From an uncultured Holophagae bacterium (GTDB lineage: Bacteria; Acidobacteriota; Thermoanaerobaculia; Thermoanaerobaculales; Sulfomarinibacteraceae): 64,000 nucleotides of DNA. The translations under genes were made by a program, and so were the position numbers. Below, piece by piece: positions 24,472-64,000 of the stretch. A model generated the notes under the pieces. It saw nothing but the letters and a program-made list of their open reading frames with translations. It was not told the DNA's origin and did not search any database. Every line of letters starts with the position of its first letter. The first letter of the stretch is position 1. Location of the stretch: positions 138,828-202,827 of the forward strand of contig CAVQBD010000002.1 in assembly GCA_963710645.1 (NCBI GenBank). The letters are read 5' to 3'.

Positions 24472-24529
24472 ATCGACTATCTCAATATTCCAGAAGAGAA
24501 TTCGGTATGATGGGCGAGGAGTGCTACTG

Positions 24530-25465
24530 ATGACTATTATTACTTATATGATCGCTTACTGTGGCATCGCAATCTTCCTGGTGGCCTGCGTGGCCCGGTT
24601 CAAGATGTGGTCGAAGATGCCCATGCACCTTCGCTGGGAACTCTACCCGGTGGCCCATGAGGGTGGCGGCAGAGCCGCGTACGGCGGTTCCTACCTCGAG
24701 GAAAGTGATTGGTGGACCAAGCCTCGCAACGTCTCGCTCGTGGGCGAGGCCAAGGTGATGGTGCCTGAAATCCTCTTTCTCGAGGCTCTCAAGGAGCACA
24801 ACAACCAGCTCTGGAAGCGCTCATTCCCGTTCCATTTCGGGCTCTACCTGGTGGCAGCGTGCACCATCCTGATGATGATCAACGGCATTCTGAGCGCCCT
24901 GCTGCCGGGGCTCATGGGTGGAATCATCGGGACGCTCTTCTCCTGGATGATCCCGATCACCGGCTACGCCGGGTTGATCATGGGATTGGTGGGTGCGGTG
25001 GGTCTGATCCAGCGGCGATTCGTCAAACCGCTGCGCGACTACTCGGCGCCCGTCGACGTGCTCAACCTCGTGTTCTTCGTGGTGGCCTTTGGTACGGCCC
25101 TGGTGACAGCACTTTGGGTCGACCACGGCTTCGAGCGGGTCACCGCGTTTGTCGGAAATCTGGTGACATTCCACGTCGCCCCGCTCCCGGGAACAGGGCC
25201 GGAGGTCCTGATGCCCATGATCTCGGCCATCCTGCTCGCTCTTCTGGTGGCCTACATTCCACTCACACACATGTCCCACTTCGTGGGCAAGTATTTCGCA
25301 TATCATTCCATCCGCTGGGCAGATGAACCCAATCTCCGCGGCGGAAAGCAAGAGAAGGTCATTCACGAGTTGTTGGACCAGCCCGTGTCATGGTCGGCCC
25401 CCCATATTCAGGGTGACGGCAAGAAGACGTGGTTGGATGTCGCGACGGAGGATCAGAAGAAATGA
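24530..25465 (+). CDS. dsrM: DsrM-like membrane b-type cytochrome (NarI/HdrE family)
   Basis: ATG 24530 lies 8 nt after a GAGGAG RBS. It is a polytopic membrane protein with the NarI-like N-terminus ...RFKMWSKMPMHLRWELYP. An ATGA overlap couples it translationally to the DsrK-like gene. Confidence 0.75.
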   Translation: MTIITYMIAYCGIAIFLVACVARFKMWSKMPMHLRWELYPVAHEGGGRAAYGGSYLEESDWWTKPRNVSLVGEAKVMVPEILFLEALKEHNNQLWKRSFPFHFGLYLVAACTILMMINGILSALLPGLMGGIIGTLFSWMIPITGYAGLIMGLVGAVGLIQRRFVKPLRDYSAPVDVLNLVFFVVAFGTALVTALWVDHGFERVTAFVGNLVTFHVAPLPGTGPEVLMPMISAILLALLVAYIPLTHMSHFVGKYFAYHSIRWADEPNLRGGKQEKVIHELLDQPVSWSAPHIQGDGKKTWLDVATEDQKK

Positions 25466-27066
25466 AGCAACCTGACAGCGTCAAGGATATTTCGAAGCAT
25501 CCGGGTCAGCCGCTGGCCCAGGTCAAGCCCATGGACCTGGTGCCGCTGCCACCCCCATTCGACAAGCTGGACGAGGAACCGGAGTTCGCTCAGTTGTCGG
25601 AAAAAGCTCGGCAGCAGTACGTTGTGCTTGACGACACCATCGCGGTGAACATCAAGAACCCCGAGACCAAGGAGGAGGAGGATCGCCTCGTCCAGAGCTT
25701 CTTGACCGGCATGAAGAAGTTGTTCACGAAGGAGGACAACTGGACGTTCCTACAGCCGCTCGAGATGTCCATGGAGCATTGCGCCAAGTGCATGACCTGC
25801 TCCGAGGCCTGCCACATCTTCGAGGAGTCGAATGAGAACGAGCTCTATCGGCCCACCTACCGGTCGGAGATCATTCGGCGGATCTACTTCAAGTACATCA
25901 AGAAGGCTTCACCCCTGATCCACGGCGACATCGATCTCAATTGGACCACCGTGGGCCGTCTCATCGAATTGAGCTATCGCTGCAATCTCTGCCGGCGCTG
26001 CGCCCAGACCTGCCCGATCGGTGTGGACAACGCGTTGTTGTCACGGGAGATCCGTAAGATCGCGTCCCAGGAGATGGGAATCGTTCCGAAGGAACTCCAC
26101 GACAATGGATCAGTACTGCAGCTCGAGGTTGGGTCTTCCACAGGGATGACCCCGATGATCGTCAAGGACAACATCGAGTTCATCGACGAGGACACGGCCG
26201 AGCGTACCGGCATCGTGTACGAGACCCCATGGGATGTTGAGGGAGCCGACATTCTGCTCATCCACAACGCGGGAGAAATCATGGCGTGGCCGGAGAACCC
26301 GGGCGCCTTTGGCACCATCTTTGATGCCGCCGGTCTGAGCTGGACCATGTCGTCGGAGATCGTGGCCTATGACGGCATCAATTACGGGGTTTGGTACGAC
26401 GACATGATGTTTGCCAAGGTGGCCGTCAAGCATGCTCAGGCGGCGGCCAAGCTCGGCGTCAAGAAGATCGTGCTCGGCGAGTGTGGCCACGCGCACAAGG
26501 CGCTTACCGTGATCGCCGACAGGGTGCTCACTGGAGACCTCAACATTCCCCGCGAAAGTTCCATGGTGACCCTGCTGGATATCGTCCGGTCGGGGAAGGT
26601 CAAGTTCGACAAGAGCCGGAACGACTTCCCGGTGACCCTTCACGATCCCTGCAATCTCGTTCGACTGATGGGTGTTGTCTCGCCGCAGCGGGAGATCATC
26701 GAGGCGGTGGTGCCCGAGGGCCGGTTCCGGGAGATGGCGCCGCACGGAGTCGAGAACTACTGCTGCGGAGGCGGATCGGGCTTTGCCATCATGTCCGGTC
26801 ACAATTTCGCCGATTGGCGTCACTACATGACCGGTCGCAGGAAGTTTCGCCAGATCCTCGACGCCTTCCAGGGCGAGGAAATGGACATGGACCATCCCAA
26901 GTATCTCTGCGCCCCGTGTTCCAACTGCAAGGGCCAGATCCGCGACATCATCACCTACTACGACGCATGGGAGAAAGCCGGTATCTACTACGGTGGCCTG
27001 GTGGAGTTGATGGTCAACGCCATGGTGGATGCCCAGCCGGGCTTCATCGATTGGGAGTGGCACTAG
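25462..27066 (+). CDS. dsrK: DsrK-like Fe-S/CCG heterodisulfide-reductase-type subunit (HdrD family)
   Basis: Ferredoxin motifs CAKCMTCSEACH and CNLCRRCAQTCP. CCG-type motifs GECGHAHK, HDPCNLVR, YCCGGGSGF and CAPCSNCKGQ. Confidence 0.8.
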   Translation: MKQPDSVKDISKHPGQPLAQVKPMDLVPLPPPFDKLDEEPEFAQLSEKARQQYVVLDDTIAVNIKNPETKEEEDRLVQSFLTGMKKLFTKEDNWTFLQPLEMSMEHCAKCMTCSEACHIFEESNENELYRPTYRSEIIRRIYFKYIKKASPLIHGDIDLNWTTVGRLIELSYRCNLCRRCAQTCPIGVDNALLSREIRKIASQEMGIVPKELHDNGSVLQLEVGSSTGMTPMIVKDNIEFIDEDTAERTGIVYETPWDVEGADILLIHNAGEIMAWPENPGAFGTIFDAAGLSWTMSSEIVAYDGINYGVWYDDMMFAKVAVKHAQAAAKLGVKKIVLGECGHAHKALTVIADRVLTGDLNIPRESSMVTLLDIVRSGKVKFDKSRNDFPVTLHDPCNLVRLMGVVSPQREIIEAVVPEGRFREMAPHGVENYCCGGGSGFAIMSGHNFADWRHYMTGRRKFRQILDAFQGEEMDMDHPKYLCAPCSNCKGQIRDIITYYDAWEKAGIYYGGLVELMVNAMVDAQPGFIDWEWH

Positions 27067-27070
27067 GTCA

Positions 27071-27126
27071 GTGACTCGTGAATAGTAAATAGTGAATAGT
27101 GAATAGTGAATAGTGAGTCGAGAATA
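27071..27126. repeat. Heptamer tandem array, GTGAATA family, 8 units
   Basis: It starts 5 nt after the dsrK TAG stop and belongs to the same unit family as 4875-4916, 22 kb away. Confidence 0.95.
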
Positions 27127-27154
27127 GTCGGAAGCTGACAGCATCAAATGATCA

Positions 27155-27236
27155 GAGACCGCCCACCCGCGTGGGCGGTTTTTTCAATGGCCCCGCCCTG
27201 GCCGATCCAAGAACGAAGAACGAAGAACGAAGATCC
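27155..27236 (+). repeat. 75-82-nt direct repeat, copy 1 (terminator hairpin, CAATGGCCCCGCCCTGGCCGATCC, then AAGAACG array)
   Basis: Apart from the AAGAACG unit count, I saw no difference from 27501-27575. This copy has three full AAGAACG units; copy 2 has two. Confidence 0.9.
27159..27184 (+). terminator. Rho-independent terminator downstream of dsrK (copy 1)
   Basis: CCGCCCAC-ccgc-GTGGGCGG gives an 8-bp GC stem with a 4-nt loop, followed by TTTTTT. Confidence 0.8.
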
Positions 27237-27263
27237 CCCCCACCCGCCCGGGTGGGGGTTTTT
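27237..27263 (+). terminator. Second hairpin and T-run terminator
   Basis: CCCCCACCC-gccc-GGGTGGGGG followed by TTTTT. Confidence 0.65.
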
Positions 27264-27500: not shown

Positions 27501-27575
27501 GAGACCGCCCACCCGCGTGGGCGGTTTTTTCAATGGCCCCGCCCTGGCCGATCCAAGAACGAAGAACGAAGATCC
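27501..27575 (+). repeat. 75-82-nt direct repeat, copy 2
   Basis: See copy 1 at 27155-27236. Confidence 0.9.
27505..27530 (+). terminator. Rho-independent terminator (copy 2; identical hairpin to 27159-27184)
   Basis: Same CCGCCCACCCGCGTGGGCGG hairpin and T6, inside the second copy of a 75-82-nt direct repeat. Confidence 0.7.
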
Positions 27576-27848: not shown

Positions 27849-28017
27849 GGATGGCCCGCGGCCAGCGGTTCATGGCTTGCGACCGGAGCAAACTGCGATC
27901 CCCGACGGTCGTCTTCCATTGCAACTTGCGACGGTGCCGCTCGTGGATTGCCGGGAAGTCAGCCCGAAATATTGATTTTAAGAGACTTGTGCATAATTTC
28001 ACGAAATCTAGGAAAAT

Positions 28018-28033
28018 GGCACGCCGGTTGCTG
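28018..28033 (+). promoter_or_regulatory. Sigma-54 (-24/-12) promoter candidate for the beta-propeller and hmc-like operon
   Basis: TGGCACGCCGGTTGCT matches the consensus at every conserved position (GG 28019-28020, GC 28031-28032). It lies about 60 nt upstream of ATG 28092, with an AT-rich tract just upstream. Confidence 0.7.
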
Positions 28034-28091: not shown

Positions 28092-29354
28092 ATGGTTGAC
28101 CTGGAGGGCTGGAATTGGGAGGAGGGACGGAGGGCCGTCGCCGACGTTTCCCGACTGCGGGAGCAGTTTGCAGATGTCCATGAGTTTGCGGTCAGCGGCG
28201 ACGGAGAGGTCATCGCCGCGCCGGTGGTCGACGAGTCGGGTGGCTTTGGTGTCTGGGTCAACGGCGCACTCTGGGAGGGAGAGTTCGAGAAAGCGTGGCA
28301 TCTCGTTTTCACTCCGGATCAGCGGTTGACGGCGTTGGTCCGCGTCGACGATGAGTGGACTCTGGCGGTGGACGGAGAGCTCTGGGATCAACGCTGGGAA
28401 TTTGCCTGGAACCCGACCTTCAGCCGCGATGGTCGGGTGATTGCGTTGCAGATCAAGGACAACATGGAGTACTCGGTTGCCGTCAACGGAACGCCGTGGG
28501 ACTGCCGCTTTCCCTCGAGCCGCGGTCTGGCGGTGAGCGACGACGGCAACACCGTGGCCGCGCTGGTTCAGGTGGTTCCGTTGGCAGAGGCGGACATCGT
28601 CGGCTTCATGGATGGAACCTGGTCCATCGCGGTCAACGGCGAGCCGTGGCAACAGAAATTCATCAACGTCTACGGCCTCGCGATCAGCGAAGACGGCTCG
28701 GGCGTTGCCGCCGAGGTCCGGCTTGACATCTGCAAGTACACGCTGGCTGAGAACTCACGGCCCTGGGAGAGCCGCTTCGGGTGCGTGTGGGAGCCCGCCT
28801 ATCGAAACGGCAGCCGGAATCTCCTGGCGCCGGTGCGGGTCGAGGGCTCGTGGACAATCGCGGAGAACGGGAGCCCCATCTGGTCGAGTCGCTTCATGCA
28901 GCTGTGGAACCTGCGGCTGAGTCAGGACGGAAGGCGGCTCGCCGCGGTGGCCGCGGGGGCTTTTGGCTCGTGGACGGTGGTGGTCGACGATCGGCCGTGG
29001 CCGGTCTCGTTCAACGATTTGATCCTGCCGCCGGTCTTCTCGCCAGACGGCCGAAGGGTCGCCGCAGGAGTCCGCCATGACGGCGTGTGGAGCGTGGCCG
29101 TCGACGGTACCCGCTGGCAGGAGACCTACGACATGGTCTGGGATCCGGTCTTTGCGCCCGACGGTGCGCGGGTGGTGGCGAAGGTGGAGCGCGACAGGAA
29201 GTTTGCCGTCGCGGTCGACGGCGAGGTCCGCGGCCCGTGGTTCGAGGCGATGTGGGAACCGGTGGTGAGCCCCGATGGGCAGCGGCTGCTGGTACGGGCC
29301 GTCGAGGACGGTGTCTACACCCGCCGGGTCGTTTCGTTCGACGGTCTCGGCTGA
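28092..29354 (+). CDS. Cytoplasmic repeat protein, about 10 PD40/WG-like beta-propeller blades
   Basis: ATG 28092 follows a GAAAGGGAG RBS; no signal peptide. The roughly 40-aa unit FSPDGrrvAa.v..dg.WsvAVdG..W...fd.vWdPv recurs about 10 times (for example FSRDGRVIALQ, VSDDGNTVAAL, FSPDGRRVAAG, FAPDGARVVAK, VSPDGQRLLVR). Confidence 0.7.
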   Translation: MVDLEGWNWEEGRRAVADVSRLREQFADVHEFAVSGDGEVIAAPVVDESGGFGVWVNGALWEGEFEKAWHLVFTPDQRLTALVRVDDEWTLAVDGELWDQRWEFAWNPTFSRDGRVIALQIKDNMEYSVAVNGTPWDCRFPSSRGLAVSDDGNTVAALVQVVPLAEADIVGFMDGTWSIAVNGEPWQQKFINVYGLAISEDGSGVAAEVRLDICKYTLAENSRPWESRFGCVWEPAYRNGSRNLLAPVRVEGSWTIAENGSPIWSSRFMQLWNLRLSQDGRRLAAVAAGAFGSWTVVVDDRPWPVSFNDLILPPVFSPDGRRVAAGVRHDGVWSVAVDGTRWQETYDMVWDPVFAPDGARVVAKVERDRKFAVAVDGEVRGPWFEAMWEPVVSPDGQRLLVRAVEDGVYTRRVVSFDGLG

Positions 29355-29369: not shown

Positions 29370-30017
29370 ATGTTCGACTTCATCAGCGGTCCGCTCGTTT
29401 GGATCGCCTTCGCCGGCCTCTTTGGAGGGCTCGCCTACCGGCTGGTCACGATGGCTGCACTGGCGCGGCGGGAGCGGGTGGTCTACCCGACGCTGGACGC
29501 CAAGTACGGCACCCGCTCACTGCTCCATTGGCTGATCCCCTTCGCGGGAAGAAAGACTCGTCTGCACCCTGCCTACACCTTGGTGTCATACGCCTTTCAC
29601 GTCTGTCTGCTGGTGACGCCGTTGTTTGCCGCCGGGCACGTCCTGCTCTTCAAGCGGTCATGGGGATTCGGCTGGTGGACCCTGCCCGACGCGGTCGGCG
29701 ACGGGATGACCCTCGTGGTGGTCTTCGCCTGCCTGTTTTTTATGATCCGGCGCCTGCTGCAGCCTGAGGTTCGCAACGTCAGCGACGCCTCAGACTTCCT
29801 CCTCGCGGGCGTGGTCCTGGTTCCATTCGCGACGGGGTTCCTCGCCCACCGGCAGTGGCTCTCCTACGAACCGATGCTCATCATCCACGGTCTTTCCGGC
29901 GTGCTGGCCCTGTTGCTGATCCCGTGGACGCGTCTGGTGCACCTGCTGTGGTTCACCTTCACCCGCGCTTTCATGGGCTCCGAGTTCGGGGCCGTCCGTC
30001 ACGCGAGGGATTGGTAA
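29370..30017 (+). CDS. hmcE: HmcE-like membrane b-type cytochrome (NarI/HdrE/DsrM family)
   Basis: 215 aa and polytopic, with His residues inside TM helices (AFHVCLL...AAGHVLL...IIHGLSG...LVHLLW). It sits directly upstream of an HdrD-like subunit. RBS GAGGAGGG. Confidence 0.65.
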   Translation: MFDFISGPLVWIAFAGLFGGLAYRLVTMAALARRERVVYPTLDAKYGTRSLLHWLIPFAGRKTRLHPAYTLVSYAFHVCLLVTPLFAAGHVLLFKRSWGFGWWTLPDAVGDGMTLVVVFACLFFMIRRLLQPEVRNVSDASDFLLAGVVLVPFATGFLAHRQWLSYEPMLIIHGLSGVLALLLIPWTRLVHLLWFTFTRAFMGSEFGAVRHARDW

Positions 30018-30059
30018 TGAACCGCCACCATCAACCGATACCGACTGGAGCACGGCAGC

Positions 30060-31379
30060 ATGGCTGATCTGCAGGACATCCAGGTCATGGATCCCGGCGT
30101 TGACGACAATATCGCCAAACTGACGCCGGAGCGTATCGAGACCACTATCAACAGGGTGCTGACCGACGAGTGCGGCGCGCGGCTGCGGGTCTATCTCGAC
30201 ACGTGTGTCCACTGCGGCCTGTGTGCCGAGGCGTGCCAGAGCTACGTCTCCCGCAACGGCGACCCGGACTACGCGCCGGTGGCCAAGGTCAAGGACACGT
30301 TGTGGGAAATGGTCAAGCGCAAGGGTCGCGTGGACGGCGAATTCCTCCACAACGCGGCCCGAATCGCCTTCATTGACTGCGGGGCGTGCCGCCGCTGCAG
30401 CATGTACTGCCCATTTGGGATCGACATCGCCTATCTGATCATGACCGTGCGTCGGATCCTCAACCTGCTCGGGGTGGTTCCCCAGTACCTTCAAGACACC
30501 ACCAACAGCCACGCCGCCACCATGAACCAGATGTGGGTCCAGCAGGATGACTGGATCGACACCCTGATGTGGCAGGAGGAGGACGCCCAGGAGGAGCTGG
30601 CGGGCACCAGGATCCCGCTCGACAAGGAGGGCGCCGACATCATGTACTCGGTGATCGGTCCCGAACCCAAGATCCTCGCCCAGCTGATCGCCAACATGGC
30701 GATCATCTTCAAGGTGGCCGGCGCCGACTGGACCATGCCGTCCACCGACGGCTGGGACAACTCGAACATGGCCATGTACTCGGGCGACTTCGAAACCATG
30801 GGACGGGTCGAGCGGCTGCACTGGGAACGTGCCATGCAGCTCAAGGTCAAACGGGTGGTGATGGGCGAGTGCGGCCACGCCTACCGCGGGGCGGTTTACG
30901 ACGGACCGAGGTGGCTTGGTTGGACCAAGCCACCCATTCCCATGGTGCACGCCGTCGAGTACTACTACGAGATCATCAAGAGCGGTCGGCTGAAGATCGC
31001 CCGAAAGATCGAAGAGCCGGTCACGGTGCAGGATCCCTGCAACATCGTCCGCGGCCGCGGGCTTCACGACAAACTGAGGTACGTCGTCAACGCGATCTGC
31101 GAGGACTTCCGGGACATGGATCCCCGTTACGAGCACAACTACTGCTGTCAGGCCGGAGGAGGGCTGATCAATTGCGGCCCACCGTGGAAGGTGTCTCGGA
31201 TGAAGAGCAACAAGATCAAGGCGGAACAGATCGTCGGCACCGGGGCCCACACGGTCATCACCCCGTGCCACAACTGCCACAGCGGCATCGAAGACATCAT
31301 CGGTTACTACAAGCTCGGCGCCCATGTGTCGTTCATCAGCGAGCTCCTGGTCAAGACCATCGAGCTTCCGGAAGCCTGA
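30060..31379 (+). CDS. hmcF: HmcF-like Fe-S/CCG protein (HdrD/DsrK family)
   Basis: Motifs CVHCGLCAEACQ, CGACRRCSMYCP, GECGHAYRG, QDPCNIVR, YCCQAGGG and TPCHNCHSG. Confidence 0.7.
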   Translation: MADLQDIQVMDPGVDDNIAKLTPERIETTINRVLTDECGARLRVYLDTCVHCGLCAEACQSYVSRNGDPDYAPVAKVKDTLWEMVKRKGRVDGEFLHNAARIAFIDCGACRRCSMYCPFGIDIAYLIMTVRRILNLLGVVPQYLQDTTNSHAATMNQMWVQQDDWIDTLMWQEEDAQEELAGTRIPLDKEGADIMYSVIGPEPKILAQLIANMAIIFKVAGADWTMPSTDGWDNSNMAMYSGDFETMGRVERLHWERAMQLKVKRVVMGECGHAYRGAVYDGPRWLGWTKPPIPMVHAVEYYYEIIKSGRLKIARKIEEPVTVQDPCNIVRGRGLHDKLRYVVNAICEDFRDMDPRYEHNYCCQAGGGLINCGPPWKVSRMKSNKIKAEQIVGTGAHTVITPCHNCHSGIEDIIGYYKLGAHVSFISELLVKTIELPEA

Positions 31380-31382
31380 GGG

Positions 31383-32903
31383 GTGGTGGGAATGTCCGCA
31401 CGCAATTGGTATCTGGCGGTTTGGTGTGTTGTGCTGTTGCTCGCGGCCACGGTTGGGGTCTCGGCCGGGGAGGTCGGGGCTTTGCGGGCCATCGGCCCGT
31501 CGATCATCGTCATGGACAACATTGGCGCCTTCGACGTCATGGAGCGGCCATCGGTGGAGTTCGACCATGCGGCACACGCCGATGCGATGAAGTCTGAGGG
31601 CTGCACGGCGTGCCATCGGGTCGAGAACGAACGGCTGATGCCCAAACTGTCCGGGATTCCCAACGTCGGCGACCGAGATGAGTTGCTCGACGGCTTTCAT
31701 GGGAGGTGTATCGGTTGCCACTCCGAGCGCGCCGATGCGGCCCAGTCCAGCGGTCCGGTGACCTGCGGCGAGTGCCACGTCCGTCGGCCGGACGGTGTCT
31801 CGACTCGGGCGGCCATGTCCTTCGATTACTCGCTCCACGCACGCCACGCGCAGGCCTACCCCGAGCGGTGCGAGGAATGCCATCACGTCTACGACGAGCA
31901 GCAGCAGAAGTTGGTTTACGTCAAGGGCGAAGAAGATGCGTGTCGCTCGTGTCACGGAGAGTCGGACGTGAATGATACGCCCTCGCTCGAAAATGCCTCC
32001 CACCGAGGCTGCATCTCGTGCCACCTGAATCGGCAGGCGGCCGAGCTCGAGGCCGGCCCGGTGCGGTGCGTCGGGTGCCATGATCTCGATCACCAGCTTG
32101 CGATCAAGACCCTCGACGCGGCCGAGATTCCCCGCCTGCTGCGAGGCCAGCCGGACAGCGTCTGGATCGTCGACGACGAGGCTCGGACCAGGGTCGTGGC
32201 CTTTGATCACAAGGGACACGAGTCGGTCACCACCTCGTGCTCCACCTGCCATCACCAGACGATGAAGCCCTGTGGTGAGTGCCACACGTTGGTTGGCTCA
32301 ACGGAGGGTGGTGGGGTCACCATGGCGGTGGCTTATCACCTCGATGGCTCCGAACACAGCTGTGTGGGGTGCCATACGCTCGAAACTCGCGAGCAGGAGT
32401 GCTCCGGCTGCCACGCCCAGCCCTCGGTGGCACCGGCCGAAAGTACTTGCACGGTGTGTCATGCGGGTCCGGTCGCTGGACCCGAGGTGGCCGAGATGCC
32501 GGTGCCGGTTGCTCAACAATCGGAAATGGCGGCTCTTCCCCAGATCTCGGAATCCTACCCGGAGACGGTGGAGATCGCCGTGCTGGTGGACCGATACCAG
32601 TCCTCCAAGCTGCCCCACGCCAAGATTGTGGCCCGGCTCGACGCAGCGGTACGGGCCAGCGATCTGGCCGGTCGATTCCACCAGAATGTGGAGACCTTGT
32701 GCGCGGGCTGTCACCACCACAGTCCGGCGGGGATCCGGCCGCCGCCGTGTCGCGCGTGCCACGCCGAGGCTGCCGCCACCCGGGACATGCCCGGACTCAA
32801 GGTTGCCTACCACCGGCAGTGCATGGGCTGCCATGCCGAGATGGGGATCAAGGCTCAGAGCTGTACGGATTGCCACGCAGAGAGGGAGGGCGAAGAGTCA
32901 TGA
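31383..32903 (+). CDS. hmcA: Periplasmic 16-heme cytochrome c (HmcA-like)
   Basis: Signal peptide, and 16 CXXCH motifs counted in the translation: CTACH, CIGCH, CGECH, CEECH, CRSCH, CISCH, CVGCH, CSTCH, CGECH, CVGCH, CSGCH, CTVCH, CAGCH, CRACH, CMGCH, CTDCH. Confidence 0.85.
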   Translation: MVGMSARNWYLAVWCVVLLLAATVGVSAGEVGALRAIGPSIIVMDNIGAFDVMERPSVEFDHAAHADAMKSEGCTACHRVENERLMPKLSGIPNVGDRDELLDGFHGRCIGCHSERADAAQSSGPVTCGECHVRRPDGVSTRAAMSFDYSLHARHAQAYPERCEECHHVYDEQQQKLVYVKGEEDACRSCHGESDVNDTPSLENASHRGCISCHLNRQAAELEAGPVRCVGCHDLDHQLAIKTLDAAEIPRLLRGQPDSVWIVDDEARTRVVAFDHKGHESVTTSCSTCHHQTMKPCGECHTLVGSTEGGGVTMAVAYHLDGSEHSCVGCHTLETREQECSGCHAQPSVAPAESTCTVCHAGPVAGPEVAEMPVPVAQQSEMAALPQISESYPETVEIAVLVDRYQSSKLPHAKIVARLDAAVRASDLAGRFHQNVETLCAGCHHHSPAGIRPPPCRACHAEAAATRDMPGLKVAYHRQCMGCHAEMGIKAQSCTDCHAEREGEES

Positions 32904-33937
32904 GCATCACACGCCGGTCCATGATCGGAGGCCTGGTTGGTGGGGCGGCCGCCATGGCGGCCGAGTCCGCCGATGCCGGCTCCCATAAGCATTTCGAGGG
33001 CTATCCGGGCCGCTACGGGCTCCTCCACGACACCACCCTGTGTGTGGGCTGCCGGTCCTGCGAGATGGCCTGTGGCGAGGTCAACGATCTGCCCGCCCCA
33101 GAGGCTCCCATTGGTGACCAGCGTGTCTTTGAGGACACGCGGCGGACCACTGCCACCCATCTGACGGTCGTCAACCGCTATGTTGAACGAAGCGGCAATC
33201 AGCCGGAGGTGTTCCGCAAGCTCCAGTGCATGCACTGCAACGAGCCGTGCTGCGCCACCGTGTGCCCGGTTGGAGCATTCACAAAAACCCCCGAGGGACC
33301 GGTGCTCTATGACGCCGAGGTCTGCATGGGTTGCCGCTACTGCATCATGGCCTGCCCCTACAACGCCTTGGCCTATGAGTATGACAATCCGCTGACGCCA
33401 AGGGTCATGCGCTGCACCATGTGCTATCAGCGGATCGTGGAGGGCCAGGTTCCGGGTTGTGCCGAAGCCTGTCCAACAGGCGCCATCACCTTCGGCCGGC
33501 GCGACGAACTCATTAAAGTGGCCAGAGAGAGGATCCGCAAGGAACCCGGCCGCTACATCGACCACATCTTCGGTGAGAACGAGTTCGGCGGCACGAGCTG
33601 GCTGCTGCTGGCCGGCGTGCCCTTCAGTCAGCTCGATCTGCACGAGGGTCTGACCTATGAGCCCCTGCCGGCCATCGCGACCAGCTATCTCAGCGTCGTG
33701 CCACTGGTGATCACGATCTACCCGGGCCTGCTCCTCGGTCTGCACGCCTTCAGCAAACGCCAGGAGGCGGTGGCCCGCAAAGAGCGGGATGAGGCGGTGG
33801 CCGAAGCCCTGAAAAAGGCCGACGACGACGCGAAACAGAAGCTCACCAAGGCCGCCGAGAAGGCGAAGAAGGACCAGCAACGGGCGGTTGACATGGCGGT
33901 TAAAAAGGCGCTCGAGGAGCACGGGGGTGGAGCATGA
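32900..33937 (+). CDS. hmcB: HmcB-like Tat-exported 4x[4Fe-4S] protein (DsrO/PsrB/NrfC family) with a C-terminal TM anchor
   Basis: ATG 32900, with an ATGA overlap to hmcA. Twin-arginine leader MSITRRSMIGGLVGG. Four Cys clusters (CVGCRSCEMAC, CMHCNEPCCATVCP, CMGCRYCIMACP, CTMCYQR...CAEACP) and a late hydrophobic helix. Confidence 0.8.
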   Translation: MSITRRSMIGGLVGGAAAMAAESADAGSHKHFEGYPGRYGLLHDTTLCVGCRSCEMACGEVNDLPAPEAPIGDQRVFEDTRRTTATHLTVVNRYVERSGNQPEVFRKLQCMHCNEPCCATVCPVGAFTKTPEGPVLYDAEVCMGCRYCIMACPYNALAYEYDNPLTPRVMRCTMCYQRIVEGQVPGCAEACPTGAITFGRRDELIKVARERIRKEPGRYIDHIFGENEFGGTSWLLLAGVPFSQLDLHEGLTYEPLPAIATSYLSVVPLVITIYPGLLLGLHAFSKRQEAVARKERDEAVAEALKKADDDAKQKLTKAAEKAKKDQQRAVDMAVKKALEEHGGGA

Positions 33938-35121
33938 GTCAGGCCGGTGTCGAGAGTCTGCAGCCGGCGCCGTCAAAGCCCGGTCTGCTGACTCCGTTCA
34001 ACGTGGTGTCGGGGATCATATTGATCGGTGGTGCGGCGATCCTGGCCCTCCGATTCATCAAGGGGTTGGAGGCGACGACCAACCTCACCGACACCTATCC
34101 GTGGGGGCTGTGGATCGGCTTCGATGTCATGAGTGGGGTCGCGCTGGCAGCCGGTGGCTTCGTCACTTCGACTGCCGTTTACCTCTTCGGCATGAAGGAG
34201 TACAAGCCCATCGTCCGGCCGGCGATCCTGACGGGATTCCTCGGTTATTTCCTGGTGGTCCTCGGGCTGCTTGCGGATCTCGGACGCCCCTGGCGCCTTC
34301 CCTATCCCTTTATCAAACAGGCGGGCCCGACCTCACCGTTATTCGAGGTGGCGCTCTGCGTGGCGTTGTACCTGACGGTGTTGTTCATCGAGACGACGCC
34401 GGCCGCGCTGGAGTGGCTCGGTCTGAAACGGTGGCGCAGGGTGGTGGGCAGCCTGACCATCGCGCTCACCGTTTTCGGCTTGATATTGTCCACCATGCAT
34501 CAGTCCACCCTCGGGGCCATGTACATGGCGGCGCCCACCAAGGTGCACCCGCTTTGGTACTCGGCCCACATGCCGGTGCACTTCTTCGTGTCGGCGGTGG
34601 CGGCGGGCATCGGCATGGTTATCGTGGAAGGGGCCATCTCCCACCGGGCCTTCCACCATCAAGTACAGATCACCCAGGATCAATTCAGGGATATCAACAT
34701 CGGACTGGCCAAGGCCGGTGCGGTGGCTCTGGCTGTCTATTTCGCCGTCAAGGTGGTCGGTCTCGCCATCGAGGACGAATGGGCGTTGTTGGGCACGGGC
34801 TGGGGTGCGTGGTTTCTTCTGGAGATCCTCGGTTTTGTTCTGCTGCCCTGCATCCTCTTTGCGGTTGCATACCGGGAAAGGAATGTGGTGCTGGCCCGAG
34901 TCGCGGGCGTCCTCACGGTTGTGGGCGTCGTCCTGAACAGATTCAATATCACGTTTGTCGTATTCAACTGGAATTACACGACCGAGCCCAGGTACTACCC
35001 GAACTGGATGGAGATCTGGGTGACCGTCGCGTTCATCACATTCGCGGTGGTGGTGTTCAAGTTGATCGCGAGCTACATGCCGATCATGTACGAACACCCC
35101 GACTGGAAAGGCGAGCACTGA
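33934..35121 (+). CDS. hmcC: HmcC-like NrfD/PsrC/DsrP-family integral membrane quinone-interacting subunit
   Basis: ATGA overlap with hmcB. 395 aa and polytopic, with the NrfD-type N-terminus ...TYPWGLWIGFDVMSGVALAAGGF. Confidence 0.8.
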   Translation: MSQAGVESLQPAPSKPGLLTPFNVVSGIILIGGAAILALRFIKGLEATTNLTDTYPWGLWIGFDVMSGVALAAGGFVTSTAVYLFGMKEYKPIVRPAILTGFLGYFLVVLGLLADLGRPWRLPYPFIKQAGPTSPLFEVALCVALYLTVLFIETTPAALEWLGLKRWRRVVGSLTIALTVFGLILSTMHQSTLGAMYMAAPTKVHPLWYSAHMPVHFFVSAVAAGIGMVIVEGAISHRAFHHQVQITQDQFRDINIGLAKAGAVALAVYFAVKVVGLAIEDEWALLGTGWGAWFLLEILGFVLLPCILFAVAYRERNVVLARVAGVLTVVGVVLNRFNITFVVFNWNYTTEPRYYPNWMEIWVTVAFITFAVVVFKLIASYMPIMYEHPDWKGEH

Positions 35122-35131
35122 GGAGATGACA

Positions 35132-35278
35132 ATGTACACCTTGTTCGATTTCCTGACCCACACCAAAGGCATCGGGTACATCGTGGCCGGGTTGCTGCTG
35201 GTGAGCTTTATTCCGTTCTGGCGCTTCCTCACAGAGCGGGAGACGAACGACGACGCACTGTCGCAGCGGTCCCATTGA
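35132..35278 (+). CDS. Small single-TM protein (48 aa), HmcD-like by position and size
   Basis: Below the 60-aa ORF-track cutoff; found by reading the DNA. AGGAG at 35121-35125, ATG at 35132 (also at 35126), TGA at 35276-35278. Translation MYTLFDFLTHTKGIGYIVAGLLLVSFIPFWRFLTERETNDDALSQRSH contains one hydrophobic helix. Confidence 0.55.
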   Translation: MYTLFDFLTHTKGIGYIVAGLLLVSFIPFWRFLTERETNDDALSQRSH

Positions 35279-35291: not shown

Positions 35292-35657
35292 ATGGGTCAC
35301 ACGGTTCTTGTGGTGGACGACGAGCCGGATGTCAGGACATTTCTGATGGCCGTGCTCAAAAAGAGGGGATACGAGACCTTGTCCGCCTCCGATGGCCGGG
35401 AGGCTTTCGAGGTCTTGCAGCGTGAGAAACCGGACTTGGTCATCCTGGACCTCCAAATGCCCAATCAGACCGGGACTGACTTTTTCCGCCGACTGACCAA
35501 GGACAAGGAACTCAGTCAGACGCCGGTGATCGTCGTCAGTGGACTTGCCGGACGCCACCTGGCCTTCAAGGAGCCGGTGGCTGTCTTTGATAAACCGATC
35601 GACCCCGACGAGTTCGGCGAAATGGTCGACAAAACCCTCGGCGTGGACGAGGGGTGA
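35292..35657 (+). CDS. Single-domain CheY-like response regulator
   Basis: VLVVDDEPDVR...DLVILDLQMPNQTG...VIVVSG...DKPIDPDEF. Confidence 0.9.
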   Translation: MGHTVLVVDDEPDVRTFLMAVLKKRGYETLSASDGREAFEVLQREKPDLVILDLQMPNQTGTDFFRRLTKDKELSQTPVIVVSGLAGRHLAFKEPVAVFDKPIDPDEFGEMVDKTLGVDEG

Positions 35658-35691: not shown

Positions 35692-36504
35692 ATGTCTCTT
35701 TTGGAGAAAAAGGACTATAAGCACGAGAACCCTCAGGTTCGACTCAAGGCGGTGGAAGAAATGAGTGACCCGGAGATGCTGGTCTCGGTGGCCTGCACAG
35801 ATGACTCTCCCCGGGTCCGGCTGACGGCCGTCGCAAAACTGAAGGACGATCAGACGCTGGAACGAATCGCCCGTGGCGCGGAGTCCCTCGATGCTCGTCT
35901 GGTTGCGGTGGAGAGGATCTTCTCGCAGGGGGTCATCGCTGACTTGTTGAAGGACCCCAAGAACTTCGAGCTCATGTCGGTGTGCTTTTCACGCATCAGC
36001 GATCGCCGCATCATCGAGTCCATCGCCCAGGACGAAGCCTACGGTGGGGTCGTCCGTCGGATGGCGGTGGAGTACTTTGCCGATTCGGGATACCTGGACG
36101 AGGTCGCGGAAGGCGCCGTGGCTGAGATTCCGGAGACCACAGCAGATCAGAGGGTGGAAGCATTTGTCGAAGTCTACGGTGGGGGCCTGCGGGGAGTCCG
36201 CGCCATCGGCCGATTCCGCCGTTCGGAAAAGGCCCTCAAGGCACTGGGGACAATCGCCCGCAAGGGTGGCGAGACAGGTGGACTGGCGATCGAATATCTG
36301 TGTTCGGCCCTGGCCAGCCCCAACCCCAAACTGGCTGACTGTGCTGCGGATGAACTCGGGGTTCTCAAGGATTCCGAGGCGGTGGACAGTTTGATCCGTG
36401 CGATGGACAATCCCAACCTGCGAGAGCCGGTTCGGCGCGTGCTTCGCAGGATCGGGACGCCTGAAGCCGTCGCCGCTCTCGGCGACGAATCGTGGATCAG
36501 CTAG
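35692..36504 (+). CDS. HEAT-repeat protein
   Basis: ATG 35692 follows a GGGAGG RBS. Repeated ...NPQVRLKAVEEM.., DDSPRVRLTAVAKL.., SLDARLVAVERI.. and NPNLREPVRRVLRRIG segments typical of PBS-lyase/HEAT-like repeats. Confidence 0.7.
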   Translation: MSLLEKKDYKHENPQVRLKAVEEMSDPEMLVSVACTDDSPRVRLTAVAKLKDDQTLERIARGAESLDARLVAVERIFSQGVIADLLKDPKNFELMSVCFSRISDRRIIESIAQDEAYGGVVRRMAVEYFADSGYLDEVAEGAVAEIPETTADQRVEAFVEVYGGGLRGVRAIGRFRRSEKALKALGTIARKGGETGGLAIEYLCSALASPNPKLADCAADELGVLKDSEAVDSLIRAMDNPNLREPVRRVLRRIGTPEAVAALGDESWIS

Positions 36505-36525: not shown

Positions 36526-36900
36526 ATGGCGAAGAAAATTCTGATCATCGATGACGAGAAGGACATGCAGGTCTATCTCGGCACTCTGTTTCGGAAGGCG
36601 GGTTTCGAGACCAAGACCGCCTCAAATGGCGAGGAGGGCCTCAAGCTGGCCTTGACCTTCGAACCGGATCTCATCACGCTCGACGTGTTGATGCCGAAAC
36701 AGTCCGGGGTCAAGGCCTACCGAGGTCTCAGGACCTCCTCGCAGACCGCCTCGATTCCCATCGTCGTGCTGACCGGGCTCACCCGGCTGGATGACTTTTT
36801 TGGAGATCTCGGCGATTTGCGGAAACCGGACGCTCTGGTGGAGAAACCCATCGACCGGGACACCTTCCTGACCACGATCGAAGGACTCCTCAACGGCTGA
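36526..36900 (+). CDS. Single-domain CheY-like response regulator
   Basis: KILIIDDEKDMQ...DLITLDVLMPKQSG...IVVLTG...VEKPIDRDTF. Confidence 0.9.
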   Translation: MAKKILIIDDEKDMQVYLGTLFRKAGFETKTASNGEEGLKLALTFEPDLITLDVLMPKQSGVKAYRGLRTSSQTASIPIVVLTGLTRLDDFFGDLGDLRKPDALVEKPIDRDTFLTTIEGLLNG

Positions 36901-38510: not shown

Positions 38511-38553
38511 GATCCTCCGGTCTGCAGCGATGGAGTGTCCAGCGGTGCCACCT

Positions 38554-38934
38554 TCAGCGTTTCATTTCTTTGATCGCTCGCAGGATGATTTCGCGCAAAT
38601 CATCAGGCTTGAATGGTTTCGCAATGAAGTCGAAGGCACCGCGTGTGAGAGCCTCGCGCGCGACCTCCACCGTGGCGTAGCCGGTGATGAGGATCACCTT
38701 TGTGTGAGGCGACTTTTCGAGCACGTGCTCGAGCACTTCCATGCCGCTGAAGCCCTCCATCCGCACATCGGTCACGACGATGTCGAATGCCTTTTCCACC
38801 ACGCGCGCAACAGCCAGACGACTTTCCTGGAAGATCTCCACGTCATAGTCGGACTTCTCAAGCGCGGTCTTCAACCGCTTGCCAACAATTTCCTCGTCAT
38901 CGAGCACCAGAATCTGGATCTTCGGTTCGCTCAT
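38554..38934 (-). CDS. Single-domain CheY-like response regulator
   Basis: IQILVLDDEEIV...DIVVTDVRMEGFSG...VILITGY...FIAKPFKPDDL. Confidence 0.9.
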   Translation of the reverse strand: MSEPKIQILVLDDEEIVGKRLKTALEKSDYDVEIFQESRLAVARVVEKAFDIVVTDVRMEGFSGMEVLEHVLEKSPHTKVILITGYATVEVAREALTRGAFDFIAKPFKPDDLREIILRAIKEMKR

Positions 38935-46767: not shown

Positions 46768-46771
46768 GAAA

Positions 46772-56361: not shown

Positions 56362-57720
56362 ATGGATAACAGTGATTTCGATCCGGCACAGATCATTCTT
56401 GACAGCGTCGCCGACGGGGTCTTCACCGTCGATCGCCAGTGGCGCATCAGCTCGTTCAACCGGGCAGCGGAAGAGATTACAGGCGTGCCCCGGGAAGAAG
56501 CTCTGGGACAACGCTGCTGCGATGTGTTTCGGGCCAGCATCTGTGAATCCGGTTGCGCCCTCAGACACACCCTCGAAACCGGGGAAAATGTCGTCAACAA
56601 AAAGGTTTTCATTGTCGATACCGACGGTACCAAACTCCCGGTGAGCGTTTCGACGGCGATCCTCAGGGACGCCGATGGGCAACCCAAGGGTGGTGTCGAG
56701 ACCTTTCGCGATCTCAGCCACGTCGAGCAGCTGCGCAAGGAACTCGAGGGCCGTTTCTCGCTCGGCGACATCATTGGCCGCAGTCGTCCCATGAGGGACC
56801 TTTTCGAAGTGCTTCCGGCGATCGCGGCCAGCGAGAGCACCGTCGTCGTCCACGGCGCCAGCGGGACAGGCAAGGAGCTCTTCGCCCGTGCGATCCACCA
56901 GCTGTCACCGAGACGGGACAAACGGTTTGTTGCCATCAACTGTGGTGCTCTTCCGGACACTCTGCTTGAAAACGAACTCTTCGGCCACGTGGCCGGCGCC
57001 TTCACCGACGCCCGTCGTGACAGGCCGGGTCGTTTCGCCCATGCGGAAGGGGGCACCATCTTCTTGGATGAGATCGGGGATATTTCCCAGGCGATGCAGG
57101 TTCGTCTGCTGCGGGTTCTCCAGGAGCACGTCTACGAGCCTCTCGGCTCGGTGGAGCCGGTGACAGCCGACGTCCGGGTCATCGTCGCCACTCACCGCGA
57201 TCTCGCAAGCCTCGTTGAGGATGGAGTTTTCAGGGAAGACCTCTACTATCGCATCAACGTGATGAAGCTGGAGCTGCCGGCATTGAAAGAGCGCCGGGAG
57301 GACATTCCGCTGCTGGTGGATCATTTTGTCCAGCGATTCAACCGGCTTCAGGACAAGGACGTCGTCGGAGTGTCGGACGAGGTTCTCAGCCTGCTCATGA
57401 CATATTCGTTCCCAGGCAACGCCCGGGAGTTGGAAAACGTCATCGAGCACGCCTTCGTGCTCTGCAATGAAGGCTGCATCGAACTCAGACACCTGCCACC
57501 TGAAATCAGTCAGGGATCCGAAGTTCCTCCGGTGGAATCCCGGGGGGGAATGACTCTCCGTGAGATGGAAGCCCTGCAAATATCGCTTGCACTCCACCGC
57601 CATGGCGGAAACCGGAAGGCGGCGGCCGATGAGCTTGGGATCCACCCGAGCACCCTCTTCCGGAAACTCAAGGATCTGGAGATCGAGCCGCCGGAGCGCG
57701 ACGGTCGGAATAGTCAGTAG
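56362..57720 (+). CDS. Sigma-54-dependent transcriptional activator with an N-terminal Cys-rich PAS domain
   Basis: ATG 56362 is residue 463 of listed ORF 54976..57720; the upstream 462 codons are the antisense shadow of the kinase gene. PAS with GQRCCDVFRASICESGCAL, Walker A GASGTGKE, GAFTDA loop and a C-terminal Fis-type HTH. Confidence 0.9.
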   Translation: MDNSDFDPAQIILDSVADGVFTVDRQWRISSFNRAAEEITGVPREEALGQRCCDVFRASICESGCALRHTLETGENVVNKKVFIVDTDGTKLPVSVSTAILRDADGQPKGGVETFRDLSHVEQLRKELEGRFSLGDIIGRSRPMRDLFEVLPAIAASESTVVVHGASGTGKELFARAIHQLSPRRDKRFVAINCGALPDTLLENELFGHVAGAFTDARRDRPGRFAHAEGGTIFLDEIGDISQAMQVRLLRVLQEHVYEPLGSVEPVTADVRVIVATHRDLASLVEDGVFREDLYYRINVMKLELPALKERREDIPLLVDHFVQRFNRLQDKDVVGVSDEVLSLLMTYSFPGNARELENVIEHAFVLCNEGCIELRHLPPEISQGSEVPPVESRGGMTLREMEALQISLALHRHGGNRKAAADELGIHPSTLFRKLKDLEIEPPERDGRNSQ

Positions 57721-60390: not shown

Positions 60391-60406
60391 TGGCACAGCG
60401 GTTGCA
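60391..60406 (+). promoter_or_regulatory. Sigma-54 (-24/-12) promoter candidate for yeiH-like and dsrAB
   Basis: TGGCACAGCGGTTGCA (GG 60392-60393, GC 60404-60405). It lies about 47 nt upstream of ATG 60453. Confidence 0.7.
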
Positions 60407-62105: not shown

Positions 62106-62179
62106 GGAGTTTGTGTCGGGTGGGCCATCGTTGGTCTCCCCGCCGAGAAAATTTCTGAAATCAATGGAAAGGAGTGGCC

Positions 62180-63391
62180 ATGACAGAAGAGAGAAAAACG
62201 CCGCTGCTTGACGAGCTCGAAAAGGGACCGTGGCCGAGCTTTGTCAAGGAGATCAAGAAGGAGGCCGTTCGCAACGATATGTCGAACGACGTCCTGGGCA
62301 TCCTCGAACGGTCCTACGAGGAGCACATCAGCCACTGGAAGCATGGCGGACTAGTGGGTGTGATGGGGTATGGCGGGGGCGTCATCGGACGCTACTGCGA
62401 TATCCCCGAGGATTTCCCCAACGTCAGGGAGTTCCACACCTATCGCGTCAATCAGCCGTCGGCGTGGTTCTACAACACCGCGGCCCTGCGCCAGCTGTGT
62501 GATATCTGGGAGAAGTACGGCTCCGGTCTGACAAACATGCACGGCTCCACCGGCGACATCGTCTTCCTCGGGTCCGACACTGCGGCCCTGGAACCCTGTT
62601 TCGCCGAACTGAGCCACGAGCGTGAAGGTGAGCCGAGCTGGGACCTGGGCGGATCGGGCTCCAACATGCGGACCCCGAGCTGCTGCGTCGGTCCGGCGCG
62701 GTGCGAGTGGGCCTGTTACGACACCCTGGATGCCTGCTACGACATCACCCAGACCTTCCAGGACGAACTGCACCGGCCGTTCTTCCCCTATAAGTACAAG
62801 TTCAAGTTCGCCGGCTGCCCCAATGACTGTGTGGCGTCCATCGCACGATCGGACTGCTCGGTTATCGGCACCTGGAAGGACGACATCCAGGTCGATCAGG
62901 CCAAGGTTGCGGAGTACGCCGCGGGCGGCACCGACATCCAGGCCGAGGTCATCGACTACTGCCCCACCGCCTGCATGGCGTGGGACGGCAAGACCCTGGA
63001 CATCGACAACTCCAACTGCGTCAAGTGCATGCACTGCATCAACGTGCTCCACTTAGCCCTCAAGCCCGGCAAAGAGCGCGGCGCCACCATCCTCGTTGGT
63101 TCGAAGGCTCCGATCGTCGGCGGCGCGCTGCTGTCGTCGGTTTTCGTGCCTTTCCTCGAGATGGAACCCCCGTACGAAGATCTCAAGGAGCTCACCGAAG
63201 CGATCTGGGATCTCTGGGGTGAGCACGGCAAGGCCCGTGAGCGCACAGGCGAGTTCATCCAACGGGTGGGCCTCGGCAACTTCCTCGACGAGATCGGTCT
63301 CGAGCCGATCCCGGAGATGGTCATGCATCCACGCACCAACCCCTACATCTTCTTCGACACCGAGCTCGATGAAGATGAAGACGAAGAATAG
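62180..63391 (+). CDS. dsrA: Dissimilatory sulfite reductase alpha subunit
   Basis: ATG 62180 follows GAAAGGAG (GTG 62174 is an alternative). [21 protein letters not shown]-terminus, siroheme/Fe-S Cys motifs ([19 protein letters not shown]) and a ferredoxin insert (CPTACMAW...[10 protein letters not shown]). Confidence 0.93.
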
Positions 63392-63404
63392 AAGGGAGGC
63401 CCTC

Positions 63405-64000
63405 ATGACTGAATTCGAACGCCAAACCGATATCGGGCCGCCACACTACGGGCAGTTTCTTCCGCCCGTCATCAAGAACAACTACGGCAAGTGGGACCAT
63501 CACGAGATCCTCAAGCCGGGCGTGATGGTGCACGTGGGTGAGACAGGCGACAAGCTGTTCACCGTGCGCGCAGGAACACCGCGACTCCTGGCGATCACCT
63601 CGATTCGTGAGATGGCTGACCTGGCGGACAAATATTGTGATGGATACCTTCGTTGGACCAGCCGCAACAACGTCGAGTTCCTGCTCACCGACGAGTCCAA
63701 GATCGAGCCGTTGATCAAGGACGTGGAGACGCTGGGCTATCCCGTCGGCGGGACTGGCAACCAGATTTCCAACATCGTTCACACCCAGGGCTGGGTCCAC
63801 TGCCACTCCTCCGCGTCGGACGCGTCGGGTGTGGTCAAGTCCGTCATGGACGAGCTCTTCCCGTACTTCAGCGGTGAGAAGAGCCTGCCGGCCAAGCTTC
63901 GGGTGGCCTACGCGTGTTGCCTCAACATGTGCGGCGCGGTGCACTGCTCGGACATCGCGATCCTCGGGGTCCACACAAAGGTGCCGGCGATCAACCACGA
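63405..64000 (+). CDS. dsrB: Dissimilatory sulfite reductase beta subunit (5' part; runs off the window end)
   Basis: Not in the ORF track because it has no stop in the window. ATG 63405 follows a GAAGGGAGG RBS. My translation is [40 protein letters not shown]...[18 protein letters not shown]...[13 protein letters not shown]...[18 protein letters not shown]. Confidence 0.9.

Follow-up and report, generated by a model that had tools for sequence, protein, structure and literature searches.

Is the Hmc-like gene cluster of an uncultured acidobacterium an Hmc operon whose genes have changed places, and does it take over the role of DsrJOP, or does it encode a different redox complex? This question is raised by a stretch of 64,000 nucleotides (hereafter the window) from an uncultured Holophagae bacterium (contig CAVQBD010000002.1 of assembly GCA_963710645.1, positions 138,828 to 202,827). 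Six genes at positions 29370–35278 of this window had been interpreted, from the letters alone, as a complete set of Hmc components in the permuted order E-F-A-B-C-D. Nearly all work on Hmc and Tmc has been done in Desulfovibrio, where they are treated as separate complexes and Tmc is viewed as a "simplified Hmc". Our results point to a combination of the two. The structural genes run tmcD-tmcC-tmcB-hmcA-hmcB-hmcC-hmcD, and we consider it probable that they constitute one sigma-54-dependent operon, followed by two receiver genes and a HEAT-repeat gene, and encode a single Tmc-type redox complex in which HmcABCD replaces TmcA.

The first two genes of the interval had been taken for hmcE and hmcF. 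We assigned families by comparing scores of NCBIfam equivalog hidden Markov models (HMMs) with the cutoffs of these models, and used Pfam for domains. The first gene, tmcC (29370..30017, plus strand), encodes a NarI/DsrM-type membrane cytochrome b of 215 amino acids (aa) with about five hydrophobic segments. Hence, the original prediction was right about the type of protein, but not about its identity as HmcE, since the product passes the TmcC model (266.7, cutoff 240) and fails the HmcE model (173.9, cutoff 275). Its histidines H77, H90, H173 and H191 are at least 95% conserved among 55 homologues, and these four conserved residues are consistent with two haems b.

The second gene, tmcB (30060..31379, plus strand), encodes a cytoplasmic HdrD/DsrK-like Fe-S protein of 439 aa with two CX2CX2CX3C motifs, one CCG-type domain and a GECGH motif. 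Again, the description as an HdrD-like CCG protein holds, but the name HmcF does not. The product scores 706 with the TmcB model, slightly under the cutoff of 735, versus 401 with the HmcF model (cutoff 750), and it is 59% identical to Desulfovibrio TmcB versus 39–42% to HmcF. A neighbour-joining tree of K-type subunits (alignment of 437 columns; 200 bootstraps; true DsrK as root) placed the TmcB proteins of loci with the combined tmcDCB-hmcABCD layout (hereafter the hybrid) and of Desulfovibrio in one clade in 200 of 200 bootstraps. HmcF formed a separate clade, also in 200 of 200, and the TmcB and HmcF clades were sisters in 180 of 200. As positive controls, the proteins of a canonical hmcABCDEF locus of the Desulfobacterales (L048) scored 356 for HmcE and 929 for HmcF, while TmcB was again the best-scoring model for the hybrid-type K subunits of Myxococcota and Nitrospiraceae. 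By these sequence criteria, the pair labelled HmcE/HmcF is TmcC/TmcB, and on the HMM scores, the positive controls and the tree together we reject a canonical Hmc with permuted gene order.

TmcB is the most conserved subunit (56–96% identity), and its 90%-identity cluster has 408 members. Its identity is 71–80% across most phylum labels and 56–65% in three loci. Between Holophagae and Thermoanaerobaculia loci TmcB is 90–96% identical, whereas HmcA is only 52–59% identical there.

The set E-F-A-B-C-D was also not complete, because a seventh structural gene had been overlooked. This gene, tmcD (28092..29354, plus strand), ends 15 nt before tmcC, so that the unit begins at 28092 rather than at 29370. 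It encodes a cytoplasmic tryptophan-rich protein (420 aa, 24 Trp) that passes the TmcD model (493, cutoff 440) and is 39–42% identical to Desulfovibrio TmcD. Its AlphaFold2 model (predicted local distance difference test score 95.9) is all-beta, a multi-bladed propeller with a repeat of about 40 residues and conserved tryptophans, and the closest folds found with Foldseek were generic 8–9-bladed propellers, with template-modelling scores up to 0.49. The protein has only three cysteines and three histidines. Judged from the predicted fold, TmcD is probably a cofactor-less propeller serving as a cytoplasmic docking platform.

Sequence comparison supports the assignment of the next four genes to the Hmc family, as predicted; HmcB and HmcC score just under their cutoffs, but Hmc is by far their best match. 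The gene hmcA (31392..32903, plus strand; with an alternative GTG start at 31383 that would give 506 aa) encodes a periplasmic 16-haem cytochrome c with a Sec signal peptide, and a 503-aa database entry (P0001) is 100% identical to it. It is the sole open reading frame (ORF) with two or more CXXCH motifs across the 64-kb window. The count of exactly 16 such motifs in the original prediction was correct, with zero variant motifs, and the product passes the HmcA model (468, cutoff 400). In the alignment with HmcA of D. vulgaris (PDB 1GWS; E 4e-99; residues 13–501 against 9–543) all 16 motifs are in register, and all 16 are invariant among 17 members of the HmcA family. The alternative of a nine-haem (Nhc) cytochrome fails: the nine-haem model scores 119.8 against a cutoff of 640, with a match confined to the C-terminal half, and the PDB 9Hc entries match the C-terminal half only (E 2e-35). 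The TmcA model (109.8, cutoff 114) matches only c3-like domains inside the 16-haem protein, and a CXXCH scan of the ORFs found no small tetraheme cytochrome gene within the window.

The product of hmcB (32900..33937, plus strand, within a longer ORF) is an Fe-S protein of 345 aa, exported by the twin-arginine translocation (Tat) system, with the twin-arginine signal TRRSMI, 16 cluster cysteines for four [4Fe-4S] clusters, a C-terminal transmembrane helix at about residues 266–284 and a Lys/Glu/Ala-rich tail. Its score with the HmcB model is 408.7 (cutoff 420), and the next best model is HybA (218). The gene hmcC (33934..35121, plus strand) encodes an integral membrane subunit of the NrfD type (395 aa, about ten transmembrane helices; HmcC model 531.6, cutoff 550; Pfam NrfD E 8e-19), which is presumed to be the menaquinone-interacting subunit. 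HmcB and HmcC are 49–58% identical to their counterparts from canonical hmc loci. Finally, hmcD (35126..35278, plus strand) encodes a protein of 50 aa with a single transmembrane segment that passes the HmcD model (57, cutoff 34), and the orthologue in relatives belongs to Pfam DVU_0533. Hence, the ORFs, Pfam and NCBIfam bear out that six component types are present where they had been located, including the Tat-exported four-cluster Fe-S protein with its membrane anchor, the NrfD-type subunit and the tiny HmcD-like protein.

If the first genes are Tmc genes, their order takes on another meaning. Through TmcD homologues named "electron transfer complex subunit TmcD" by NCBI, we recovered two Desulfovibrio-type tmc operons (L164 and L165). 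Both run, on one strand, tmcD (419–421 aa), tmcC (219–220 aa), tmcB (446 aa) and tmcA (124–128 aa), the latter encoding a class III cytochrome. Because Desulfovibrio tmc operons run D-C-B-A, the order in the window is the native tmc order D-C-B-cytochrome, with hmcABCD in the slot of tmcA, and not a permuted hmc order. A derivation of D-C-B by reversal of a tmc operon running A-B-C-D is ruled out by the same two operons, which natively run D-C-B-A. In L165, a D. oxyclinae-like contig, tmcDCBA adjoins a [NiFe(Se)] hydrogenase operon on the opposite strand with small and large subunit genes (13004–15776), and HycI and HypC maturation genes lie just upstream of the hydrogenase (12150–12930). This neighbourhood fits the role of Tmc in periplasmic H2 oxidation.

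The hybrid order is widespread. We surveyed HmcA relatives with one genome per species and compared the best 80 of 403 loci. The order tmcD-C-B-hmcA-B-C-D was found in at least 55 of these 80 closest loci, under about ten phylum labels; L038, L065 and the second cluster of L075 also match it, as judged by eye. The labels of the metagenome-assembled genomes (MAGs) with hybrid loci include Holophagae, Ca. Sulfomarinibacteraceae/Thermoanaerobaculia, Myxococcota, Zixibacteria, Ignavibacteriales, Nitrospiraceae, Gemmatimonadaceae, Deferribacteres, Spirochaetales, Eiseniibacteriota and others. The nearest HmcA relatives (72–77% identity) are from Holophagae MAGs. The canonical order hmcABCDEF was found in nine loci of the 80, all from Desulfobacterales. 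Clustering of flanking ORFs across phyla, which was noisy from spurious antisense ORFs, added only two-component genes to the conserved core. A further arrangement occurs in Myxococcota MAGs (L026, about 14160–15900, minus strand; L028, about 16744, minus strand): they have a second HmcA-B-C(-D) cluster without tmcB and tmcD, and near it a gene for a divergent HdrD-like protein of 580 aa whose C-terminus is a fused DVU0259-like receiver domain. Such a fusion would place a CCG Fe-S protein under direct phosphorelay control.

In the window, the structural genes all lie on the plus strand and are tightly packed according to the ORF listing, at the coordinates from which the prediction had started. 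The intergenic gaps from tmcD to the first receiver gene are 15, 42, 12 (or 3), −4, −4, 4 and 13 nt, where the negative values at the hmcA/hmcB and hmcB/hmcC junctions are 4-nt ATGA overlaps. A terminator scan found no convincing terminator within the tmcD-hmcD operon or after it, and Rfam gave no match at 24–39 kb of the window. Because the spacing is short or overlapping and no internal terminator was seen, we interpret the genes as one operon.

One operon might still encode two separate complexes that are coupled only via the menaquinone pool. In this case, HmcABCD would be a periplasmic cytochrome c:menaquinone oxidoreductase comparable to Nhc or Qrc, and TmcBCD, comparable to DsrMK, a menaquinol:DsrC oxidoreductase. 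Each half indeed owns a membrane subunit. Moreover, NhcABCD-type operons without E and F subunits exist and work in Desulfovibrio (PMC4215793), and DsrMK without JOP is accepted as a minimal functional unit (PMC10591310). However, hmcA follows directly after tmcB in strict order in the at least 55 loci from many phyla, and it holds the exact slot of tmcA, which in canonical operons encodes a subunit of the Tmc complex. Canonical Hmc operons, too, encode homologues of E and F together with ABCD. We therefore regard two separate complexes as unlikely, and infer that the seven proteins assemble into a single Tmc-type complex.

A perfect sigma-54 (−24/−12) consensus promoter, TGGCACGCCGGTTGCT (28017..28032, plus strand), lies about 60 nt before the ATG of tmcD. 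The exact consensus occurs only twice in the 64 kb, where 0.15 matches are expected. The second exact site (60391..60406, plus strand) precedes a YeiH-like gene and dsrAB. Both sites recur in relatives: about 13 acidobacterial loci have the sigma-54 motif 47–89 nt before tmcD, compared with a background rate of 0.02 per 400 nt, and L081, L082, L083 and L001 retain the site that precedes the dsr operon. Between the two promoters lies a gene for a sigma-54 enhancer-binding protein with a PAS domain (56362..57720, plus strand; Pfam Sigma54_activat, PAS and HTH_8). It is 79% identical to its orthologue in L081, which is located between the hmc genes and dsrA, and it is a candidate activator of both promoters. 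Since the sole two exact sigma-54 sites precede tmcD and dsrAB, with the activator gene between them, our results suggest that the redox complex and dsr are co-regulated.

The original prediction also stated that the window contains dsrMK without dsrJOP, and that Hmc may supply the periplasm-facing module provided by DsrJOP elsewhere. The pair in question (24521..27066, plus strand) consists of a dsrM-like and a dsrK-like gene in a separate transcription unit and represents a separate paralogous M/K family. It fails the DsrK model (321, cutoff 400) and gives no hit with the DsrM model, so that the window does not contain dsrMK at this position. The dsrK-like protein is only 28% identical to DsrK of L081, and the pair forms its own cluster of ten sequences. 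This third M/K-type pair, a NarI-like membrane protein and a CCG protein with GECGH and CCG motifs, is neither of the Dsr, the Tmc nor the Hmc type; it lies beside the cluster in about nine acidobacterial loci and one other.

The genuine dsr genes lie at the far end of the window and in its relatives. The window contains dsrA (62174 or 62180 to 63391) and, from 63405 up to its last position, the first 198 codons of dsrB (62174..64000 in total, plus strand). DsrA scores 576 with its NCBIfam model (cutoff 393), and DsrB is 86% identical to that of L081. In L081, L082 and L083 (DsrA 88% and 77% identical) the hmc genes and the same regulators are followed by dsrA-B-D-L-N-C-T-M-K and the start of dsrJ. 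DsrM and DsrK of L081 score 457 and 720, and the close metagenome contig L090 has scores above cutoff for each of DsrK, J, O and P; the scores of the true Dsr subunits M, K, J, O and P in these relatives are 457, 720, 173, 275 and 464.

How would a canonical Hmc fare under these observations, with its E and F genes shifted to the front and its periplasmic module serving the adjacent dsrMK of a genome that lacks dsrJOP? The A–D genes do belong to the Hmc family, a dsrMK-like pair does lie directly upstream here and in about nine related loci, and no dsrJOP genes were found within the window. Yet the window itself ends inside dsrB, and relatives encode dsrMKJ or dsrMKJOP, including another dsrMK, downstream of dsrAB: the syntenic relatives have a true dsrMKJ and the close metagenome contig has dsrMKJOP. 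Furthermore, the genes taken for E and F do not pass the HmcE and HmcF models and group with TmcB in the tree, tmcD is present, and the cluster already owns an M/K-type pair. The upstream pair fails the DsrM/DsrK models, and terminators as well as a separate sigma-54 promoter lie between this pair and tmcD. This reading is thus highly improbable. A replacement of DsrJOP by Hmc is unlikely, because relatives carry the canonical dsrMKJOP and the "dsrMK" of the window is a distinct paralogue; for the relatives, which carry dsrMKJ(OP), we reject it. The best explanation is that the hybrid operon, which in this lineage shares an island with dsrAB-D-L-N-C-T-MKJOP, is an extra electron entry route into sulfite reduction rather than a replacement of DsrJOP.

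The 1 kb of non-coding DNA with hairpins that separates the upstream dsrK-like gene from tmcD has some structure of its own. Terminator-like hairpins with T runs lie at 27155–27190 and 27237–27262 (27155..27262, plus strand), and the first hairpin is repeated at 27501–27536. It is part of a perfect 72-nt direct repeat (27155–27226 and 27501–27572, 346 nt apart), each copy of which bears the terminator-like hairpin CCGCCCAC..GTGGGCGG followed by T6. In addition, a tandem array of the 7-nt unit AGTGAAT is found at 27056–27139.

A receiver protein had also been noted after the structural genes, by analogy with the rrf1/rrf2 regulators of hmc. The gene is present, but the parallel with rrf1 does not hold. 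The stand-alone receiver directly after hmcD (35292..35657, plus strand; 121 aa) belongs to the DVU0259 (DivK-like) family, with a model score of 133.9 (cutoff 160), a Pfam Response_reg match and a position that is kept in acidobacterial loci. By its locus tag, and also according to PMC5109826, the DVU0259 family is tied to the tmc locus and not to rrf1. A HEAT-repeat protein (35692..36504, plus strand; Pfam HEAT_2) follows, whose start at 35692 is fixed by a 70%-identical orthologue in L081, and then a second stand-alone receiver (36526..36900, plus strand; Pfam Response_reg). In Acidobacteriota the HEAT-repeat gene lies between both receiver genes, and the second receiver is conserved in the cluster.

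What might such a complex do? According to one proposal, Tmc and Hmc carry electrons from periplasmic cytochrome c3 to DsrC or back, and mutants in Tmc have a defect in H2 oxidation (PMC4215793). The roles of the GECGH motif, the Fe-S motifs and the CCG domain in DsrK, TmcB and HmcF have been described, and the GECGH cysteine has been tied to disulfide or trisulfide reduction (PMC10861901). Since the analogous Tmc is needed for H2 oxidation and is a proposed feeder of DsrC, we consider it most likely that the complex connects menaquinone and the cytochromes of the periplasm with an HdrD-like DsrC reductase in the cytoplasm. HmcA and HmcB would face the periplasm, HmcC and TmcC would span the membrane, and TmcB and TmcD would face the cytoplasm. 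HmcA could exchange electrons with periplasmic donors through its 16 haems and pass them via the Fe-S protein HmcB to HmcC, which would be in contact with menaquinone, and to the di-haem cytochrome b TmcC. From TmcC they would reach TmcB, where the cluster of the CCG domain and the GECGH cysteine may reduce a protein disulfide or trisulfide, most likely on DsrC. TmcD would act as the cytoplasmic docking subunit.

Several points weigh against this interpretation. The scores of TmcB, HmcB and HmcC lie slightly under the NCBIfam equivalog cutoffs, and no PDB entry is related in sequence to TmcB, TmcD or HmcC. In the Hmc of Desulfovibrio, electrons have been suggested to flow in the reverse direction (PMC4215793, PMC5109826). 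The window lacks genes for a periplasmic hydrogenase, a formate dehydrogenase and a type I cytochrome c3. Finally, most loci with the hybrid layout outside the Acidobacteriota show no dsr gene within 10 kb, and hence DsrC may not be the universal partner. In our comparison, dsrA lies at most 10 kb from the cluster in 12 acidobacterial loci and in none of the other phyla; in the window the distance is 27 kb.

This last point would suit a more general electron conduit from periplasm to cytoplasm that is not tied to Dsr. TmcB would then act on another thiol/disulfide or on ferredoxin, and the dsr linkage would be specific to the acidobacterial lineage. The presence of the cluster without a dsr gene within 10 kb in MAGs of Myxococcota, Ignavibacteriales, Zixibacteria, Gemmatimonadaceae, Spirochaetales and others is in line with this idea, and no cytoplasmic partner of either Tmc or Hmc has so far been proven (PMC4215793). 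In the present lineage, however, the cluster sits in a dsr island and has the sigma-54 promoter type in common with dsrAB, while TmcB retains the GECGH cysteine implicated in DsrC reduction (PMC10861901). In the genomes of the other phyla dsrC may lie elsewhere, as only the surroundings of the cluster were compared. We consider a general conduit quite unlikely and retain DsrC as the inferred substrate of a single Tmc-type complex.

The hybrid has features in common with four known systems. With the Tmc of Desulfovibrio it shares TmcD and TmcC proteins that pass their models, a K subunit of the TmcB clade, the order D-C-B-cytochrome and an adjacent receiver of the DVU0259 family. Unlike that complex, it has no tetraheme type II cytochrome c3 TmcA, but the 16-haem HmcA with HmcB, HmcC and HmcD in its place. 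It thereby possesses two subunits that are missing from Tmc, a periplasmic Fe-S protein and an NrfD-type protein that interacts with quinone. With the Hmc of Desulfovibrio and Desulfobacterales it shares an HmcA (16 haems aligned to 1GWS) and an HmcD that pass, an HmcB and HmcC near their cutoffs, and the six functional subunit types. It differs in having a cytochrome b and a CCG protein of the Tmc type, whose genes precede hmcA instead of following hmcD, in the extra TmcD, and in sigma-54 regulation instead of rrf1/rrf2.

The order dsrM-K-J-O-P is well established, and is also present in L081 and L090. The hybrid is colinear with DsrMKJOP in its cytochrome b, CCG protein, c-type cytochrome, Tat-exported Fe-S protein and NrfD subunit; it also shares the GECGH motif, and clusters of this type are genomically linked to dsrAB/dsrC in Acidobacteriota. 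In contrast, all its subunits fail the Dsr models (for instance, DsrK 207, cutoff 400; DsrO 96, cutoff 200), it has 16 haems where DsrJ has three, TmcD and HmcD are extra, and the relatives hold a true dsrMKJOP as well. NhcABCD shares the multihaem cytochrome followed by Fe-S, NrfD and small transmembrane subunits, but has nine haems instead of 16 and no cytoplasmic CCG subunit.

A few features of the surrounding DNA deserve mention. Between the second receiver gene and a conserved histidine kinase, about 17 kb of the window (36984–54600) have no counterpart in L081 and L083. This extra DNA encodes, among others, another kinase, a TauE/SafE exporter and a 1201-aa SulP-STAS sulfate permease. 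An IS3-like element (57890–59109; ORFs of 133 and 268 aa) lies between the sigma-54 activator gene and a NifX-like gene. Upstream of the redox operon, a cytoplasmic redox cluster at 14263–21379 encodes a GltD-like flavoprotein fused to two CCG domains (NCBIfam 'diclust_near_Sec' 502, cutoff 530), a molybdopterin protein resembling NuoG and formate dehydrogenase, and a NuoE-NuoF fusion. Its products might form a heterodisulfide-type reductase linked to NAD(P)H or to formate.

All subunit families of the hybrid are known, but the combination of tmcBCD with hmcABCD is undescribed in the papers we searched. The hybrid was described nowhere in that literature, although an earlier description is still possible, and Hmc and Tmc were unmentioned in the acidobacterial sulfur-cycle papers searched. 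The public names of key subunits are generic ("Fe-S oxidoreductase", "(Fe-S)-binding protein", "WD40 repeat domain-containing protein"). Among the closest HmcA relatives, the combined Tmc/Hmc form is the prevailing arrangement.

In the sulfite- and sulfate-reducing Acidobacteriota, the operon sits in the dsr island behind the same type of promoter, which makes the hybrid a candidate second electron entry to DsrC; published genome reconstructions of these organisms leave it unmentioned. This is relevant to electron flow in non-classical sulfite and sulfate reducers. For the family, the hybrid is a tangible intermediate that helps to trace how complexes of the Dsr, Hmc and Tmc types evolved. Possibly, though we regard this as doubtful, tmcDCB-hmcABCD is an ancestral or intermediate form of the Hmc/Tmc family, colinear with dsrMKJOP. 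The Tmc of Desulfovibrio would then have arisen by loss of hmcBCD and shrinkage of the cytochrome from 16 to 4 haems, and the Hmc of Desulfovibrio by loss of tmcD and a shift of a diverged C/B pair to the far end. In that case, the principal Hmc/Tmc-type complex in nature would be the hybrid, and a single supercomplex would couple periplasmic cytochromes, menaquinone and DsrC in many phyla beyond the classical sulfate reducers.

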